From contig CAZYCL010000003.1 of assembly GCA_964645795.1 (NCBI GenBank), positions 101,771-165,770 on the forward strand: DNA of 64,000 nucleotides, written 5' to 3'. This document shows positions 20,245-51,735 of this stretch, piece after piece. Below the pieces are notes generated by a model that saw only the letters and a list, made by a program, of their open reading frames with translations, did not search any database and was not told the DNA's origin. Position 1 is the stretch's first letter. Each line of letters starts with the position of its first letter. The translations under genes and the position numbers were made by a program. Origin of the DNA: an uncultured Planctomycetales bacterium. Its GTDB lineage: Bacteria > Omnitrophota > Gorgyraeia > Gygaellales > Profunditerraquicolaceae.

Positions 20245-20340
20245 GCTAGAGTTTTCGGTAGCCTGACTACCCGTGTCGCTGTCGGGCTCACGGCTTTGCG
20301 TCCTCTCCTTGCGAAGAGTTTGCCTTTATCGAACAATATT
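20245..20340 (-). promoter_or_regulatory. c-di-GMP-I (GEMM) riboswitch aptamer
   Basis: Minus-strand RNA: ...GGCAAAC-CUCUUC-GCAA-GGAGAG-GACGCAAAGCC-GUGAG-CCCG-ACAGCGACA-CGGG-UAGUCAGGCUACCGA... Compared with the Vibrio cholerae Vc2 aptamer (...GGCAAACC-AUUC-GAAA-GAGU-GGGACGCAAAGCC...UACCGA), GGCAAAC and GACGCAAAGCC are identical and there is a 6-bp P1b hairpin capped by a GNRA tetraloop (GCAA). A second hairpin and the 3' UACCGA follow. Confidence 0.8.
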
Positions 20341-38100: not shown

Positions 38101-38114
38101 ATAAACAAATTTGA

Positions 38115-38285
38115 TTATACGGGTTAGGGAAATCAGTCGAAGTACAAGCTGATGCGGTCCCGCCGCTGTGATCCCGGCCTCCTTGAAAGGGAGGCAGCCT
38201 TTGGAGTTAGTAAAGCCACTGTCCGCCGCAAGCGGGTGGGAAGGCTAACCAATGGCCAAGGAAAGCCAGAAGACCTGCCTGTATA
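38115..38285 (+). promoter_or_regulatory. Cobalamin (AdoCbl-type) riboswitch aptamer
   Basis: Conserved blocks appear in the canonical order: GGGAA...CTG...CCCGCCGCTGTGA (cf. CCCGCAACTGTAA), then the GCCACTG core, then GGGAAGGC, then the B12 box AAGCCAGAAGACCTGCC. It is upstream of btuF. Confidence 0.8.
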
Positions 38286-38329
38286 AAGACGCAAAAGCCT
38301 CGAGGAAAGGGCCAAGTAAATATTTGGGT

Positions 38330-38376
38330 GCAGCCCGATTTCAGTACGAAAGTACGGATCGGGCATTTTTATTTTT
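38330..38376 (+). terminator. Riboswitch expression-platform intrinsic terminator
   Basis: GCCCGAT-TTCAGTACGAAAGTACGG-ATCGGGC followed by ATTTTTATTTTT. The btuF ATG at 38380 follows with only a weak SD. Confidence 0.65.
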
Positions 38377-38379
38377 GAG

Positions 38380-43262: not shown

Positions 43263-44008
43263 AACCTTTTCTATTGGCGCTGCAGTTTTTGACTATCATC
43301 CCGGTACAGATAAACAAAGTCAAGACCAGGCACATTGCCTCTTCGGTGGCGTATTTCCCTCTGATCGGCATATTCCTGGGCTCATGTCTCATTATTATTA
43401 ACTTCATATTGCAGCGGAGCGGCTTCAACGCCTTGACGGTTGATACTTTGCTGGTAGTCGCGCTTATTGTCCTTACCGGCGGCCTGCATATGGACGGCCT
43501 TGCCGATACTTGTGACGCTTTAGGCAGCGGTAGCGGCAGGGAGAAAATGCTTGAGATCATGCGAGATTCGCGTATCGGGGCAATGGGGGTTTTAGGCATA
43601 ATATGCGTCATCGTATCCAAGATATCCCTGCTTAACAGCATGGATCAGTTTTTGAAACCTTATGCCCTGCTCTTAATGTGTGTTTTAAGCCGCTGGGGCA
43701 TGGTGCTGGAAATGCTGTCTTTTCGCTATGCCAGGCAAGAAGGCAAGGCAAAGGATTACATAGAAGGCGCGGACCTTAAATTTTTTGTTTTGGCAACGAC
43801 GATAACTTTCGTAACGGTCCTGGCTGCTGGAGGGGCCAGAAGCATAATCGCCATGGCAGTCGTCGCCTTGGCGGTTTTTCTTCTAGGGTTGTTCTTTTCA
43901 AAAAAGTTCGGCGGGATCACCGGAGATACGATCGGGGCAGGCAACGAAATTACGGAACTGGTCTCTCTGGTGGCTATTATTGGGGTGCACCAAGGGTGGC
44001 TGGCATGA
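43259..44008 (+). CDS. cobS: Cobalamin-5'-phosphate synthase (adenosylcobinamide-GDP ribazoletransferase)
   Basis: 249 aa polytopic membrane protein with the CobS signature (GGLHMDGLADTCDAL). Confidence 0.85.
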   Translation: MKPFLLALQFLTIIPVQINKVKTRHIASSVAYFPLIGIFLGSCLIIINFILQRSGFNALTVDTLLVVALIVLTGGLHMDGLADTCDALGSGSGREKMLEIMRDSRIGAMGVLGIICVIVSKISLLNSMDQFLKPYALLLMCVLSRWGMVLEMLSFRYARQEGKAKDYIEGADLKFFVLATTITFVTVLAAGGARSIIAMAVVALAVFLLGLFFSKKFGGITGDTIGAGNEITELVSLVAIIGVHQGWLA

Positions 44009-44697
44009 ATGAACAAGTTGCCCTGTCTTCCTGGAGCGGAGGCAAAGACAGCTGTTTGGCATACTTCAAGGCCATAAACAGCGGCGTCCAGGTAAAGGCC
44101 CTTCTTAATTTCATCGGCCGCGAATCGAAGCGAGGCTGTTTTCATGGCCTAGAGGGCAGGCTTCTAAAGTTCCAGGCCGATCTCATAGGGGTTCCTTTGG
44201 TTCAGAAAGAAGTAAGCCCTGATATGAAGATGTATGAAGGCGAGTTCAAGGCTGCGGTTGAGGAGCTCAAGGCCTCCCGGAAAATAAACTCCATGGTTTT
44301 CGGCGATATTTACCTGCTGGAGCACCAAAGCTGGGTTGAAAGGGTATGCTCGGAGCTTGGAATTAAAGCGGTCGAACCTCTCTGGAACAACGATCCGGAA
44401 AAGATTATCGAAGAGTTTTTGGATGCGGGATTTAGGTCCGTCGTGGTCAGTTGCAAGGCCGATGTCATGGGGCGCGAGTTTATCGGCCGCTTTATAGATA
44501 GGGAGATGGTTAAAGACCTCAAGAAACTCCAAATTTGCCCCTGTGGGGAGAAAGGAGAGTACCATACTTTAGTGGTTGATGGGCCGATATTCAAGAAGCG
44601 CATCGAGATCGCCGAATCCGAGGTGATCAAGAAGGAGAGCTTCTGGACGCACTGGTTTTTGGATATCAAGAGGTACGAAGCGGTAGAAAAGAGCTAA
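43996..44697 (+). CDS. PP-loop ATP pyrophosphatase-like protein of the MJ0570/Dph6 (DUF71) family
   Basis: 233 aa with an N-terminal SGGKDS PP-loop. It is the last gene of the riboswitch-controlled btu-cob operon, ending immediately before the second riboswitch. Confidence 0.6.
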   Translation: MAGMNEQVALSSWSGGKDSCLAYFKAINSGVQVKALLNFIGRESKRGCFHGLEGRLLKFQADLIGVPLVQKEVSPDMKMYEGEFKAAVEELKASRKINSMVFGDIYLLEHQSWVERVCSELGIKAVEPLWNNDPEKIIEEFLDAGFRSVVVSCKADVMGREFIGRFIDREMVKDLKKLQICPCGEKGEYHTLVVDGPIFKKRIEIAESEVIKKESFWTHWFLDIKRYEAVEKS

Positions 44698-44714
44698 AAT
44701 AATCGTTAACTATC

Positions 44715-44850
44715 CGTATGTGCGAAGGAACTCCCGGTGTGATCCCGGGGGCTGCCCCGCAACAGTAATTTAGTTCACAGCCCACTGTCAACTGTCAACT
44801 AATTAGCCTGGTCCATCGTACATAACGGAAAGTACCTTCGCGGGAAGGAA
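44715..44850 (+). promoter_or_regulatory. Second, compact cobalamin riboswitch-like element upstream of btuB
   Basis: It has GGTGtgATCC, GCTGCCCCGCAACAGTAA (consensus GCUGnCCCCGCAACUGUAA) and the AGCCCACTG core. A putative P1 pairs GCGAAGG (44730-44736) with CCTTCGC (44837-44843), with the GGAAAGGAG RBS immediately 3'. The 3' B12-box match (AGCCTGGTCC) is weaker. Confidence 0.55.
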
Positions 44851-44865
44851 AGGAGAATATTTATC

Positions 44866-46707
44866 ATGAACCGGCTTCTGTGTGTATTCATTTCGTTGTT
44901 ATTCATGGGCTGTAACAGCGTTTTTGCGGGTGAGGTCGAGCTTGAGAAGATCGTTGTGACCGCCTCACGGATGCTTCAGCAGGACAGTTCTGTTAACCAA
45001 AAAGTAGACGTTGTAGAAGATAGCCTCATCGAAAGCCGTCAAGCCAATAATCTTGCTAAGGCAATCGAAAGCCTGACCCCGGTCCAGGTGATCAATTACG
45101 GAGGCCTAGGGGCAAGCAAGAGCGTAAGAATGCGGGGGGCTAGCCCTTCGCAGGTCCTGGTCATGGTTGACGGCCGCCCTATCAATAATGCGCGCGACGG
45201 CCAGGCAGAGCTCAATAGCATACAACTGGACAATATCGGGCGAATTGAACTTTTGCGCGGCGCGGCCTCCAGCCTATACGGCTCATCAGCTATGGGTGGC
45301 GTGATAAACCTAATCAGCCGCCCTGTGCCTAAAAAAGGATTCCACAGCGAAATCCATAGCGGCTTCGGGACATTCAGGAGGTATAGCGAACGCCTGCTTC
45401 ATGAAGGCAGGCCAATCCCCCAAATAGGCTACAGCATAAATTATTCTTACAACCATTCGCAGGGCCACAGGAGTAATAGCGATTTTGAAGCAAATAACTT
45501 TAACGCGAAGATAAGCTGCGAACCAACCGATCAAAACAGATTCGAATTTTTGGGAGGAGCCTACAAGGATGAAGCCGGCACTCCCGGACCGGCCAGCTTC
45601 CCCGATGAAGATGACCGCCAGAAATCCAGGAAAAATTACTACGATATAATCTGGGAGTTTGATACCGACGAAAAAACGCAAGTTAAGCTGCGCACTTACC
45701 AGAACTACGACAGGCTAGAGTTCATTGAAAATACTCCGGGCGACTTATGGAGCACGCCTTTTGCCAAAGATATTCATGCTACCAGGCAAAGGGGGCTTGA
45801 TTTTACCGCCAGCCGCGCGTTCTGCGAAAATTTTAGCGCTGTGGGAGGGTTTAATTACGTTGACAACAAAAATGACAGCACGACCTCAGCAAAGCACAAG
45901 TATATCGTAAAAAGCTGGTATTTTACCGGTAAACTCAAGCCTTTGCCGGGCCTTGATCTTGATTTCGGCTCCAGGGTAGACGATTATTCTAACTTCGGCA
46001 GCCAGGTAAGCCCGAATATAGGCATAGGTTGTGATCTGAGAAAGGGTTTGAAGTTTTATGCTTTGACCAGCCGCTCCTTCAGGGCGCCCACGTTTAACGA
46101 CCTTTACTGGCCTGATGAGGGTTGGGCAAAGGGCAACCCTTCCCTGAAGCCTGAAAAAGGCATAAACGGCGAGGCAGGATTCAGGCTCGATTTAGATAAA
46201 CACATCCGGGCCAATCTTTGCTACTTCCGCAGCCGTTACAGCCAGCTTATAAACTGGGTGCCGGATGCATCCGGCTGGGTGTGGTCTCCGACGAACATAG
46301 GCAAGGCGCTTATTGACGGTATCGAATCCGACTTGTCCGTAATGCTGACCGAGGATGTCGGGCTCAGTTTTGGCTATACCTATGTCCGAGCAAAAGACAG
46401 CGATACCCGCAAGTTCCTTATTTATCAACCTAAGCATAAGGCAAAGTTCGGCCTTAAGCATAGCGATATTTACGGTTTTTCTGTCGAATTGAAAGGCGAA
46501 TTCACAGGCAAAGCCTTTCATGATTCCCAGAATGCCACATTCATTGAACGCTACTATCTTCTTGGCTTTAACATCGACAGAAAGATAAACCAACATGCGC
46601 ATTTCTACCTGTCTGTGGATAACCTGCTTAACAAGAAGTATGCAATCGTGCAGGACTATCCCATGCCAGGATTTAGCGTAAACGCGTGCCTTAAGCTTGA
46701 ATTTTAA
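44866..46707 (+). CDS. btuB: TonB-dependent outer-membrane receptor (BtuB-like cobalamin/corrinoid receptor)
   Basis: 613 aa with a signal peptide, TonB box EKIVVTASR, plug domain, 22-strand barrel region, and a C-terminal ...LKLEF ending in Phe. Preceded by a cobalamin riboswitch-like leader. Confidence 0.85.
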   Translation: MNRLLCVFISLLFMGCNSVFAGEVELEKIVVTASRMLQQDSSVNQKVDVVEDSLIESRQANNLAKAIESLTPVQVINYGGLGASKSVRMRGASPSQVLVMVDGRPINNARDGQAELNSIQLDNIGRIELLRGAASSLYGSSAMGGVINLISRPVPKKGFHSEIHSGFGTFRRYSERLLHEGRPIPQIGYSINYSYNHSQGHRSNSDFEANNFNAKISCEPTDQNRFEFLGGAYKDEAGTPGPASFPDEDDRQKSRKNYYDIIWEFDTDEKTQVKLRTYQNYDRLEFIENTPGDLWSTPFAKDIHATRQRGLDFTASRAFCENFSAVGGFNYVDNKNDSTTSAKHKYIVKSWYFTGKLKPLPGLDLDFGSRVDDYSNFGSQVSPNIGIGCDLRKGLKFYALTSRSFRAPTFNDLYWPDEGWAKGNPSLKPEKGINGEAGFRLDLDKHIRANLCYFRSRYSQLINWVPDASGWVWSPTNIGKALIDGIESDLSVMLTEDVGLSFGYTYVRAKDSDTRKFLIYQPKHKAKFGLKHSDIYGFSVELKGEFTGKAFHDSQNATFIERYYLLGFNIDRKINQHAHFYLSVDNLLNKKYAIVQDYPMPGFSVNACLKLEF

Positions 46708-50316: not shown

Positions 50317-51735
50317 ATGAAAATACTTCTTCTAAGCCCTCCTTTCGTAAAAGGATTCGCCCGCAACGGCAGATGCGATTATGTCACCTGGTCGGGTACC
50401 CAGTGGTATCCGATATGGTTGGGGTATTGCGGAGGGTTGCTTGAGAAAAATAACCACAAGGTAAAACTTATCGATGCGCCGGCAATGAGGATCGGCTTTA
50501 AAGAAACACTGAGAGCCGTAAAAGAGTTCAAGCCCGATCTTGTGACGGTTTACAGTTCAACCCGCAGCCAGAAAAGCGACATCGATTTCTTAAAGGAAAT
50601 CAGGTCGCGCTTTTTTGGGCGCATAATTCTTGCCGGGCCTTATGTATCGGGAATAGAGGAAGAGCTCTTAAAATCAAACAACAGCATAGACGGGGTTGTC
50701 AGAGGAGAATTTGAATATCCGCTCCTTAAGATGGCCGGCGGTTCGCGCGAATCCGAAATCGATAACCTCATTTGGAGAAAAGGCTGCGAGGTATTCTCCA
50801 ATCCCATGCGGGGGCCGCTTACCGGCAGTGAACTGGATAGCCTTCCTTTTGTTACCGATTTCTATGCGCGCCACCTTGACCTAAGAAATTATCACGTACC
50901 TTCGGAGCTTTTCCCATTTCTGGACCTGTTTACCGGAAGGGGCTGCGCATGGGGAAGGTGCATTTTTTGCCTCTGGCCGCACGCATTTATAAAAGGCCCG
51001 GCCTATGCCACCCGCAGCATCAATAATGTTATGGAGGAGTTGGATTTTGTGGCCAGAAAGCTTTCGTCTATACGGCAAGTATTTTTCCAGGACGACACTT
51101 TGCCGGCGCACAGAGCTACGGAGCTATCAGAAGCGATCCTAAAGCGGCGGATAAAGCTGACCTGGGGATGTTATGTCAGGGCGGATACGAGCTATGAAAC
51201 CCTAAGGCTTATGAAAAAGGCGGGTTGCCGCACGCTGCATGTCGGCTATGAGAGCGGGGTTCAGGCTTTGCTTGATACCATTAATAAAGGAATTACCCTG
51301 CAACAGATGCATGAATTCAGCAAGAATTCCCGTAAGGCCGGCTTGAGGGTGCACGGTGACTTCCTCTTTGGCCTTCCCGGAGAAACCAGGGACTCCCTGC
51401 GCACGACCATAAATTGGGCGATCAACCTTGATCCGGAGACAGCCCAATTCCTTAAAATAAATTTATACGGTTCAACGCCTGTCTATGGAATGCTTGAAAG
51501 CGCAAGTTTTCATAAAAAAGGAGTTTACGAACGGGCCGCGGTCACGGACAAAGAGATTGACGATTTCATCAGGCAGGCATACCGAAAATTCTATTTAAGG
51601 CGGGGTTTCATGAAAAGATTATGCCTGTACCCATTCGAATATTGTTTCAGGCAGATCCCCGCAGTAGAACAAATGATAAAAAGAATGCTTTTTGGCCCTG
51701 ACCGGCCATATTCGCAAGCAGCGGATCAGAGATGA
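50317..51735 (+). CDS. Cobalamin-binding radical SAM enzyme (class B, B12-binding domain + rSAM)
   Basis: 472 aa with an N-terminal B12-binding Rossmann-like domain (MKILLLSPPF...), then GRGCAWGRCIFCLWP. Confidence 0.8.
   Translation: MKILLLSPPFVKGFARNGRCDYVTWSGTQWYPIWLGYCGGLLEKNNHKVKLIDAPAMRIGFKETLRAVKEFKPDLVTVYSSTRSQKSDIDFLKEIRSRFFGRIILAGPYVSGIEEELLKSNNSIDGVVRGEFEYPLLKMAGGSRESEIDNLIWRKGCEVFSNPMRGPLTGSELDSLPFVTDFYARHLDLRNYHVPSELFPFLDLFTGRGCAWGRCIFCLWPHAFIKGPAYATRSINNVMEELDFVARKLSSIRQVFFQDDTLPAHRATELSEAILKRRIKLTWGCYVRADTSYETLRLMKKAGCRTLHVGYESGVQALLDTINKGITLQQMHEFSKNSRKAGLRVHGDFLFGLPGETRDSLRTTINWAINLDPETAQFLKINLYGSTPVYGMLESASFHKKGVYERAAVTDKEIDDFIRQAYRKFYLRRGFMKRLCLYPFEYCFRQIPAVEQMIKRMLFGPDRPYSQAADQR

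Follow-up and report, generated by a model that had tools for sequence, protein, structure and literature searches.

The 64,000-nt stretch of DNA analysed here (the window) carries a canonical cobalamin riboswitch at the head of a B12 gene cluster, and a shorter leader within that cluster raises the question of whether it is a second switch, of what class, and by what means it would control the gene that follows. The compact leader is the 168-base spacer at 44698-44865, which lies 5´ of an outer-membrane B12 receptor gene and is bounded by the TAA (44695-97) of a gene for a Dph6-like PP-loop ATPase and by the ATG (44866) of the receptor gene. The regulated gene encodes a BtuB-like TonB-dependent receptor of 613 aa with plug and beta-barrel domains (44866-46707, + strand). 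Its top NCBIfam match is TonB-B12 (TIGR01779; 214 bits, full length, below the equivalog cut-off), and its nearest protein relatives are at most 49% identical to it and nearly all labelled Candidatus Omnitrophota. The initial annotation had read the spacer as a second, compact, possibly Cbl-II-like aptamer with apparent translational control. The analysis described below leads to a related reading with a different internal structure: the leader is probably a class II type cobalamin (corrinoid) riboswitch, of a sub-family specific to Omnitrophota/PVC and predicted to turn translation off through an L5-L13 kissing loop.

An Rfam scan of the whole window at gathering thresholds gave no match in the compact-leader spacer. 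The matches at this level were RF00174 at 38104-38296 (62.9 bits), referred to here as riboswitch 1, and a c-di-GMP-I-GGC riboswitch aptamer (RF03167) at 20253-20333 (-), with 68.7 bits against a gathering score of 59. A permissive scan of 44600-44950 (351 nt), on the other hand, recovered a full-length match to RF01482 (AdoCbl) at 36.3 bits (E 3e-5), which does not reach the gathering score of 50 but is better than those to the other clan models; one further clan member matched the leader at a lower score. The covariance search proposed as a check in the initial annotation, with RF00174 and RF01689, was thus negative at gathering level, and the best match below it was to RF01482. We take RF01482 to be the Cbl-IIb, or Enterococcus faecalis eut, type. 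The leader falls outside RF00174, as it scores below the gathering score of 31.5 and has neither the P2 arm nor the P6 extension containing GCCACUG. With regard to Cbl-IIa, no 5-nt bulged J1/3 segment is visible in the P1 5´ strand, and RF01689 was not the best clan match in a scan that reported the score of the best member alone.

Three orthologous loci (L001, L003 and L011) have leaders that are arranged alike and flanked by the same pair of genes; of these, L011 gave a sub-threshold RF01482 match at 36.8 bits. A scan of genome contigs with a receptor alignment returned, among the matches listed, mostly distant receptors sharing the generic TonB-receptor motif FRAPTFND; the useful loci among the matches listed were these three and L024. 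A metagenome collection was scanned with a pattern for the 5´ half of the element alone (GGAA-N5-GGT-N3-19-AYYC-N6-CTG-N4-GCAAC-N-GTAA), and the matches, at least 120 in number, yielded 108 unique complete elements among the matches listed. Since this collection is pattern-based, several core columns are invariant by construction, and since the relatives share descent, shuffle controls overstate significance. The metagenome contigs carry no taxonomy, and the clade is described here as Omnitrophota-type; no literature report on cobalamin riboswitches in Omnitrophica was found. The 3´ half is conserved even though it lies outside the pattern: it contains AGYCYGG, a six-nt J6/3 strand (GUCGAU, GACGAU, GUCCAU and others) and the 3´ strand of the closing helix. 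After the closing helix, the relatives have AAGUA, then pyrimidines that end in an invariant C, a loop and Shine-Dalgarno (SD) sequence rich in purines, and the start codon.

We built a covariance model of 128 positions (R1) from 55 non-redundant relatives, with the window sequence left out (alignment A3). On the 64-kb window, R1 gave a sole hit at 44710-44854, covering model positions 1-128 of 128 with 102.7 bits (E about 3e-25; E-values from R1 are rough), and it does not detect riboswitch 1. When R1 was run on 80 named genome loci with BtuB-like receptors from many phyla, the scores were bimodal, with 82-108 bits for L024 (from a Planctomycetales-labelled MAG), L003, L011 and L001 and at most 36 bits for all other loci. 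This bimodality indicates a tight, clade-specific sub-family, to which the leader belongs. The relatives score on either side of the Rfam cut-offs, with 39.6-56.4 bits for RF01482 or 25.5-39.4 bits for RF00174 (GGAC sub-type); a curated Rfam cut-off was reached by about 8 of the 35 relatives tested, and that of RF01482 by 4 of those tested. The 36.3 bits of the window sequence are therefore typical of the clade and not noise. In all likelihood the leader is a true cobalamin riboswitch of compact type, which goes undetected at standard Rfam thresholds.

The minimum free energy (MFE) fold of the leader is a four-way junction with a small 3´ hairpin (-55 kcal/mol, z = -2.6), in independent agreement with the RF01482 alignment. 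All parts described here are on the + strand. The 5´ strand of the closing helix (44714-44724) consists of P1a (CCG, 44714-16) and P1b (UAUGUGCG, 44717-24), and its 3´ strand (44817-44828) of CGUACAUA (44817-24), a bulged A44825 and CGG (44826-28). Both strands are placed alike by the RF01482 alignment, the MFE fold, R1 and covariation. The J1/3 junction strand that follows (AAGGAA, 44725-44730) is single-stranded, has no P2 arm and aligns to the RF01482 junction; its GGAA is invariant in the family, but this is imposed by the search pattern. P3/L4 (44731-44750), identified by covariation, comprises an outer pair C44731-G44750, a bulged U44732, the stem CCCGG/CCGGG and a T-loop-like L4 (UGUGAUC, 44738-44). 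P5 (UG/CA, 44753-44761) carries the loop L5 (CCCCG, 44755-59), which is the aptamer half of the kissing loop as judged from L5-L13 covariation. P6 (44763-44810) is composed of a base, CAG (44763-65) with CUG (44808-10), in which the window has an A-U pair where most relatives have G-C, followed by an internal UAA/AGC and a variable hairpin (44769-44804). J6/3 (GUCCAU, 44811-44816) occupies a conserved position outside the search pattern; the consensus is G(U/A)C(G/C/U)A(U/C), and 8 of 108 relatives among the matches listed share GTCCAT with the window.

The aptamer so defined spans 44714-44828, or ~115 nt, and the regulatory hairpin P13 begins six nt downstream, after the J1/13 linker AAAGUA (44829-44834); AAGUA stands before P13 in 76/108 relatives among the matches listed. 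P13 (44835-44848), seen in MFE folds and in family covariation, pairs CCUU (44835-38) with AAGG (44845-48) around the loop L13 (CGCGGG, 44839-44). The SD sequence AAGGAG (44850-44855) is located 1-2 nt 3´ of P13 and 10 nt 5´ of the start codon.

The sequence strings that had been quoted in the initial annotation are all present, at 44736-44745 (GGTGTGATCC), 44751-44768 (GCTGCCCCGCAACAGTAA), 44779-44787 (AGCCCACTG), 44805-44814 (AGCCTGGTCC) and 44847-44855 (GGAAAGGAG), though not all in the roles given to them. AGCCCACTG, which had been called a core motif, sits in the hypervariable P6 hairpin and occurs in 1 of 108 relatives among the matches listed, and AGCCTGGTCC, taken for a degenerate B12 box, is instead the conserved AGYCYGG together with J6/3 of the sub-family. 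The GCCCACUG-like string is found in one of the 108 relatives among the matches listed and is not conserved. The P6 hairpin ranges from 12 to 104 nt in the family (median 20.5, among the matches listed) and has no conserved sequence; in the window, 7 nt within it are directly repeated in tandem (CTGTCAA CTGTCAA, 44785-44798), and a similar TTAGTTGACAGTTAACTGTTAACTAA sequence is present in the P6 hairpin of L105. In five relatives (L001, L003, L097, L102 and L168), whose riboswitches are otherwise conserved, the P6 loop contains an insertion of long, repeat-like hairpins of 70-105 nt, and in seven (L135, L161, L172, L178, L168, L087 and L189) the J1/13 linker is interrupted by GC-rich hairpins of the GCCUGCC...GGCAGGC type. 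These insertions could represent small hairpin elements that are mobile or able to expand.

Covariation was assessed in a MAFFT alignment of 60 sequences including that of the window (A2), in which 23 pairs were tested: 2 bp in P1a, 8 bp in P1b, 1 + 5 bp in P3 with its bulged U, 2 bp in P5, 3 bp at the P6 base and two kissing-loop pairs. The cells were paired in 96.3% of cases, compared with 34-50% in slid registers, and 15 of the 23 pairs had changes on both sides; the observed values were reached by 0/500 shuffles. Compensatory changes were found across the 60 sequences in all eight P1b pairs and in four of the six P3 pairs, with 99% of P3 cells paired and the outer P3 pair being GC in 41, AU in 15 and CG in 1. 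The leader retains every invariant column of this alignment, including seven outside the search pattern. The comparative alignment of leaders that had been suggested at the outset hence supports the class II anatomy and the kissing loop.

An L5-L13 kissing loop has been described as shared by all cobalamin riboswitch classes (PMC7367189). P13 was left out of the covariance model because its loop lengths differ, and the kissing loop was therefore tested without alignment. In the family, L5 has the form CUG-x1x2x3x4-G-C, and L13 has an invariant C at its first position and y2 at its second. Pairing of x4 with y2 is seen in 60/60 sequences with four pair types (CG 55, AU 3, GU 1, UA 1), and additional L5-L13 pairs form after a 0-2-nt bulge, as in UCGCG/CGCGA, ACGUG/CACG, CCCAG/CUGGG and GGCG/CGCU. 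For 53 distinct L5/L13 combinations, the mean duplex energy of native partners was -3.95 kcal/mol compared with -2.59 +/- 0.23 kcal/mol for permuted partners, and 0/2000 permutations reached the native value. In the window, L5 CCCGC (44756-60) complements GCGGG (44840-44) over 5 bp, for which a simple estimate gives a duplex energy of -10.1 kcal/mol; energies of this kind approximate a tertiary kissing loop only crudely.

Cbl-II riboswitches are defined by the lack of a loop-stem-loop P2 arm and by a simple stem-loop on P6 (PMC7367189). The leader has this organization, in line with the Cbl-II-like class that the initial annotation had suggested as possible: just 6 nt (AAGGAA, 44725-30) separate the closing helix from P3, and a simple stem-loop (44769-44804) sits on P6 in place of the P7-P11 extension. 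The four-way junction P3-P4-P5-P6 is present with its core motifs in the covariance-model alignments, P3 and the P6 base covarying and P5 being invariant, and the L5-L13 kissing loop (CCCGC/GCGGG in the window), detected both by covariation and by the permutation test, joins the aptamer to the expression platform. Genes for B12 transport and metabolism adjoin the leader, with the BtuB-like receptor downstream and btuFCD-cobCUTS upstream, and do so likewise in the relatives. Among the subclasses, Cbl-IIb has a P1 that is almost continuous but for a small mismatch, together with a short P6 hairpin, and is said to bind AdoCbl (PMC7367189). The leader resembles this type in its long P1, with a small mismatch for the P2 arm, its P3-P6 junction and its short P6 hairpin. 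It is like RF01482 also in that its 3´ hairpin forms the L5 kissing loop, that it aligns to the model at full length and that RF01482 is its best-matching curated model. It differs from RF01482 in the J6/3 of its family (GUCGAU/GACGAU rather than GUCUUU) and in the family L5 (CUG-N4-GC), and it is clade-specific and precedes a btuB-like receptor rather than eut genes.

With the class IIa riboswitch env8HyCbl (Rfam AdoCbl-variant, RF01689, PDB 4FRN), the leader shares the L5-L13 kissing loop, which ligand stabilises in env8, the bulged L13, the short J1/13 and a ribosome-binding site in or beside SL13, and translational repression as in env8 is proposed for the leader, where the mechanism is a prediction. 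Unlike env8HyCbl, the leader has no visible J1/3 T-loop internal loop; its core is nearer the canonical or RF01482 consensus, and its family resembles those class II members that lack the J1/3 T-loop (PMC6158498). In common with canonical class I elements (RF00174, riboswitch 1, E. coli btuB) are the core strings GGAA..GGUG..AUCC..GCUGCCCCGCAAC.GUAA..AGCC.GG, the association with B12-uptake genes and the principle of the L5 kissing loop. Compared with class I, however, the leader lacks both a P2 arm and the GCCACUG-containing P6-P11 extension, its L5 is one nucleotide shorter, it spans ~115 nt rather than ~190 nt, and its platform is probably translational where riboswitch 1 has a terminator.

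No terminator-like site was found on the + strand at 44300-45100, as the initial annotation had also stated, and no sigma-70-type promoter was found on the + strand of the spacer. Since a terminator is absent and the SD sequence adjoins the regulatory hairpin, translational control is the best reading of the leader, in keeping with the control that had been suggested in the initial annotation. Of the relatives, 55/108 have an SD that overlaps P13 at its 3´ strand and 29/108 one that lies 1-3 nt past P13, and the start codon has a median position 8 nt after P13 (all among the matches listed). The leader is of the sub-type CCUUC...GAAGG-AAAGGAG, in which the SD lies 1-2 nt past the hairpin and outside the predicted P13 helix, and its distance of 17 nt from P13 to the ATG is the longest of the family among the matches listed. 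A shifted P13 register, in which CCUU would pair with AAGG of the SD (44850-53), was considered and discarded, being weaker than that with AAGG at 44845-48 (-1.0 versus -2.2 kcal/mol, both for an open loop). No direct pairing of the SD is thus predicted in the window copy, and occlusion would therefore be steric. The isolated platform folds no better than shuffles (z = +0.8).

In the env8 class II riboswitch, a cobalamin-dependent kissing loop occludes the ribosome-binding site, bulged L13 nucleotides matter, and regulation requires a J1/13 linker of 5 nt or more (PMC5028336). The leader has a bulged L13 nucleotide and a 6-nt J1/13 that match these features. By analogy with env8, bound corrinoid would stabilise the L5-L13 kissing loop, which would dock P13 onto the aptamer and bury the ribosome-binding region, so that translation of the BtuB-like receptor would be off; in the absence of ligand, the kissing loop would be loose and the SD accessible. 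Corrinoid-stabilised docking of the kissing loop that blocks receptor translation is the best-supported mechanism by this analogy, from which we infer the ligand identity, the OFF direction and the SD occlusion in the leader.

The wider gene context is that of a B12 cluster controlled at two places. Riboswitch 1 (38104-38377, + strand) consists of the canonical aptamer (38104-38296; RF00174, 62.9 bits) and an intrinsic terminator (38331-38377), whose stem and U-run were read from the sequence; a promoter-like pair, TTGACA (38072-77) and TAAAGT (38095-100), lies upstream. As this strong terminator stands directly before the btuF ATG, riboswitch 1 is a transcriptional switch. It is followed by homologues of btuF, btuC and btuD, then cobC, cobU, cobT, cobS and the PP-loop ATPase gene, and then by the compact leader, after which come the receptor, a TonB C-terminal domain protein, two GT2 glycosyltransferases, a radical SAM/SPASM protein and an HpnJ-like B12-binding radical SAM protein. 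The receptor is presumably co-transcribed with the upstream cluster and, because riboswitch 1 separately attenuates that cluster at the level of transcription, B12 probably controls the receptor at two levels. In the related loci, a receptor homologue lies downstream of the element in 87/92, and a B12 gene lies directly upstream on the same strand in 64/94 (PP-loop ATPase in 45, btuD in 12, cobS in 7), both among the matches listed. Of the 14 loci, among the matches listed, whose upstream sequence extends for 6 kb or more, 9 have a canonical RF00174 element (47-126 bits) upstream on the same strand. By this recurrence, a class I transcriptional switch combined with a probable class II translational one is a conserved design. 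A class I element at the operon head and a compact switch before the receptor make a neat but unsurprising arrangement.

Several observations at this and related loci stand somewhat apart. The Dph6-like PP-loop ATP pyrophosphatase (43996-44697; PF01902; TIGR03679 at 147 bits, below cut-off) is conserved in related B12 transport and salvage clusters; that it amidates a corrinoid carboxylate would be a guess. The HpnJ-like protein (TIGR03471, 311 bits, below cut-off) is encoded at 50317-51735; its gene and that of the radical SAM/SPASM protein have the orientation of the receptor gene and lie downstream of it, so that a B12 consumer may be encoded near the uptake genes. In L119 (1579-1122, -) and L195 (3953-3504, -), a canonical RF00174 element and a compact member are arranged in tandem in one leader, ~85-100 nt apart. 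At three loci, L115 (ORF after 1258-1382, +), L196 and L180 (second copy at 376-522, -), the compact switch precedes, in place of a receptor, a protein with a prepilin-type N-terminal methylation motif and DUF1559 (PF07963 and PF07596), a family typical of PVC, which hints at a B12-related role for these proteins. The compact member of L201 precedes cobU and would regulate it. An Omnitrophota receptor orthologue, L004, uses a canonical RF00174 element (2092-2289, 91.6 bits) and not the compact type, and in L002 (2440-2500) the receptor gene follows the PP-loop gene with practically no leader in between.

Four other readings of the leader were weighed against a translational class II switch. 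The compact aptamer could sense a different corrinoid from riboswitch 1 (hydroxo- or methyl-cobalamin, or an incomplete corrinoid), so that operon and receptor would answer different inputs, as had been raised in the initial annotation. Two structurally different classes do recur in one cluster, with RF00174 upstream in 9/14 long loci among the matches listed, and some Cbl-II members are selective for MeCbl or HyCbl, selectivity varying widely within the class (PMC7367189, PMC6158498). The best curated match of the leader, however, is RF01482 (AdoCbl) and not the AdoCbl-variant model, no env8-type J1/3 T-loop bulge is visible, and the continuous P1 and short P6 hairpin fit the AdoCbl-binding Cbl-IIb; selectivity, moreover, is not readable from sequence. 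Given that model and that architecture, the leader would, if anything, have the same ligand class as riboswitch 1, and we consider a different ligand unlikely. The further proposition that the compact switch is a clade-specific selectivity class, systematically paired with class I to sense two corrinoid species, strikes us as quite improbable. If it were true, the complete coenzyme would stop transcription of the salvage and ABC-import genes and another corrinoid would stop translation of the receptor, giving a two-input logic in one operon. A distinct matter is whether the switch acts mainly on the level of the mRNA, by Rho-dependent termination or decay after ligand binding, and not by direct SD occlusion. 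The position of the window SD outside the P13 helix would allow for this, regulation by env8 also involves mRNA abundance (PMC5028336), and, among the matches listed, six relatives (L086, L181, L133, L143, L159 and L201) have a terminator-like hairpin and U-run after P13 with the start codon far downstream, from which it appears that the same aptamer and kissing loop also serve transcriptional platforms. Against this, no intrinsic terminator was found at the leader itself, and most relatives bear a translational signature, with the SD in or at most 3 nt from P13 and the ATG at a median of 8 nt after it, among the matches listed; we regard action mainly on the mRNA level as distinctly unlikely.

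The initial annotation had paired GCGAAGG with CCTTCGC as the aptamer P1 and coupled the SD through the 3´ strand of this helix. Both strings exist, at 44722-44728 and 44835-44841, the first being displaced from the position of about 44730 given for it, and they form a 7-bp Watson-Crick complement in the window (duplex estimate -13 kcal/mol), with at least 5 pairs, G-U allowed, possible in 69/108 relatives among the matches listed. The helix might also be an alternative of the ligand-free state that holds the anti-SD strand. The strings do not covary across the relatives, however: native partners averaged -5.18 kcal/mol and permuted ones -5.06 +/- 0.16 kcal/mol, 245/1000 permutations were as good, and the full 7 bp are present in only 7/108 relatives among the matches listed. 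The pairing as P1 was accordingly rejected family-wide. It also overlaps, and is incompatible with, the covarying P1b and the junction, the closing helix being CCG plus UAUGUGCG with CGUACAUA plus CGG. CCTTCGC, moreover, does not abut the SD, as 5 nt (GGGAA) intervene before GGAAAGGAG; coupling would run instead through the L5-L13 kissing loop and P13. The complementarity itself arises because the purine-rich junction GAAGGAA resembles an SD and the P13 5´ strand is an anti-SD, and we judge a role for the helix, as P1 or as a ligand-free alternative, to be very improbable. That the leader is a decayed, non-functional remnant might be suspected from its Rfam score below threshold and its odd P6 hairpin with the direct repeat. 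The full-length match to the family model (102.7 bits), the retention of every invariant column of the 60-sequence alignment and the integrity of all helices and of the 5-bp kissing-loop complementarity make this hardly credible.

A translational class II switch thus remains our preferred reading of the leader, and as such it leaves the current understanding of cobalamin riboswitches unchanged, being a familiar type of element from a group of bacteria that has received little study. It does document a recurrent operon design, in which a terminator-type class I element stands at the head and a translational class II element directly before the receptor, and the family provides at least 100 natural L5/L13 variants as a ready covariation data set for a regulatory kissing loop. 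Most B12 riboswitches of this candidate-phylum lineage escape the curated thresholds of Rfam, and since just ~8 of the 35 relatives tested pass the cut-offs, the B12 regulons of Omnitrophota-type genomes are under-annotated.
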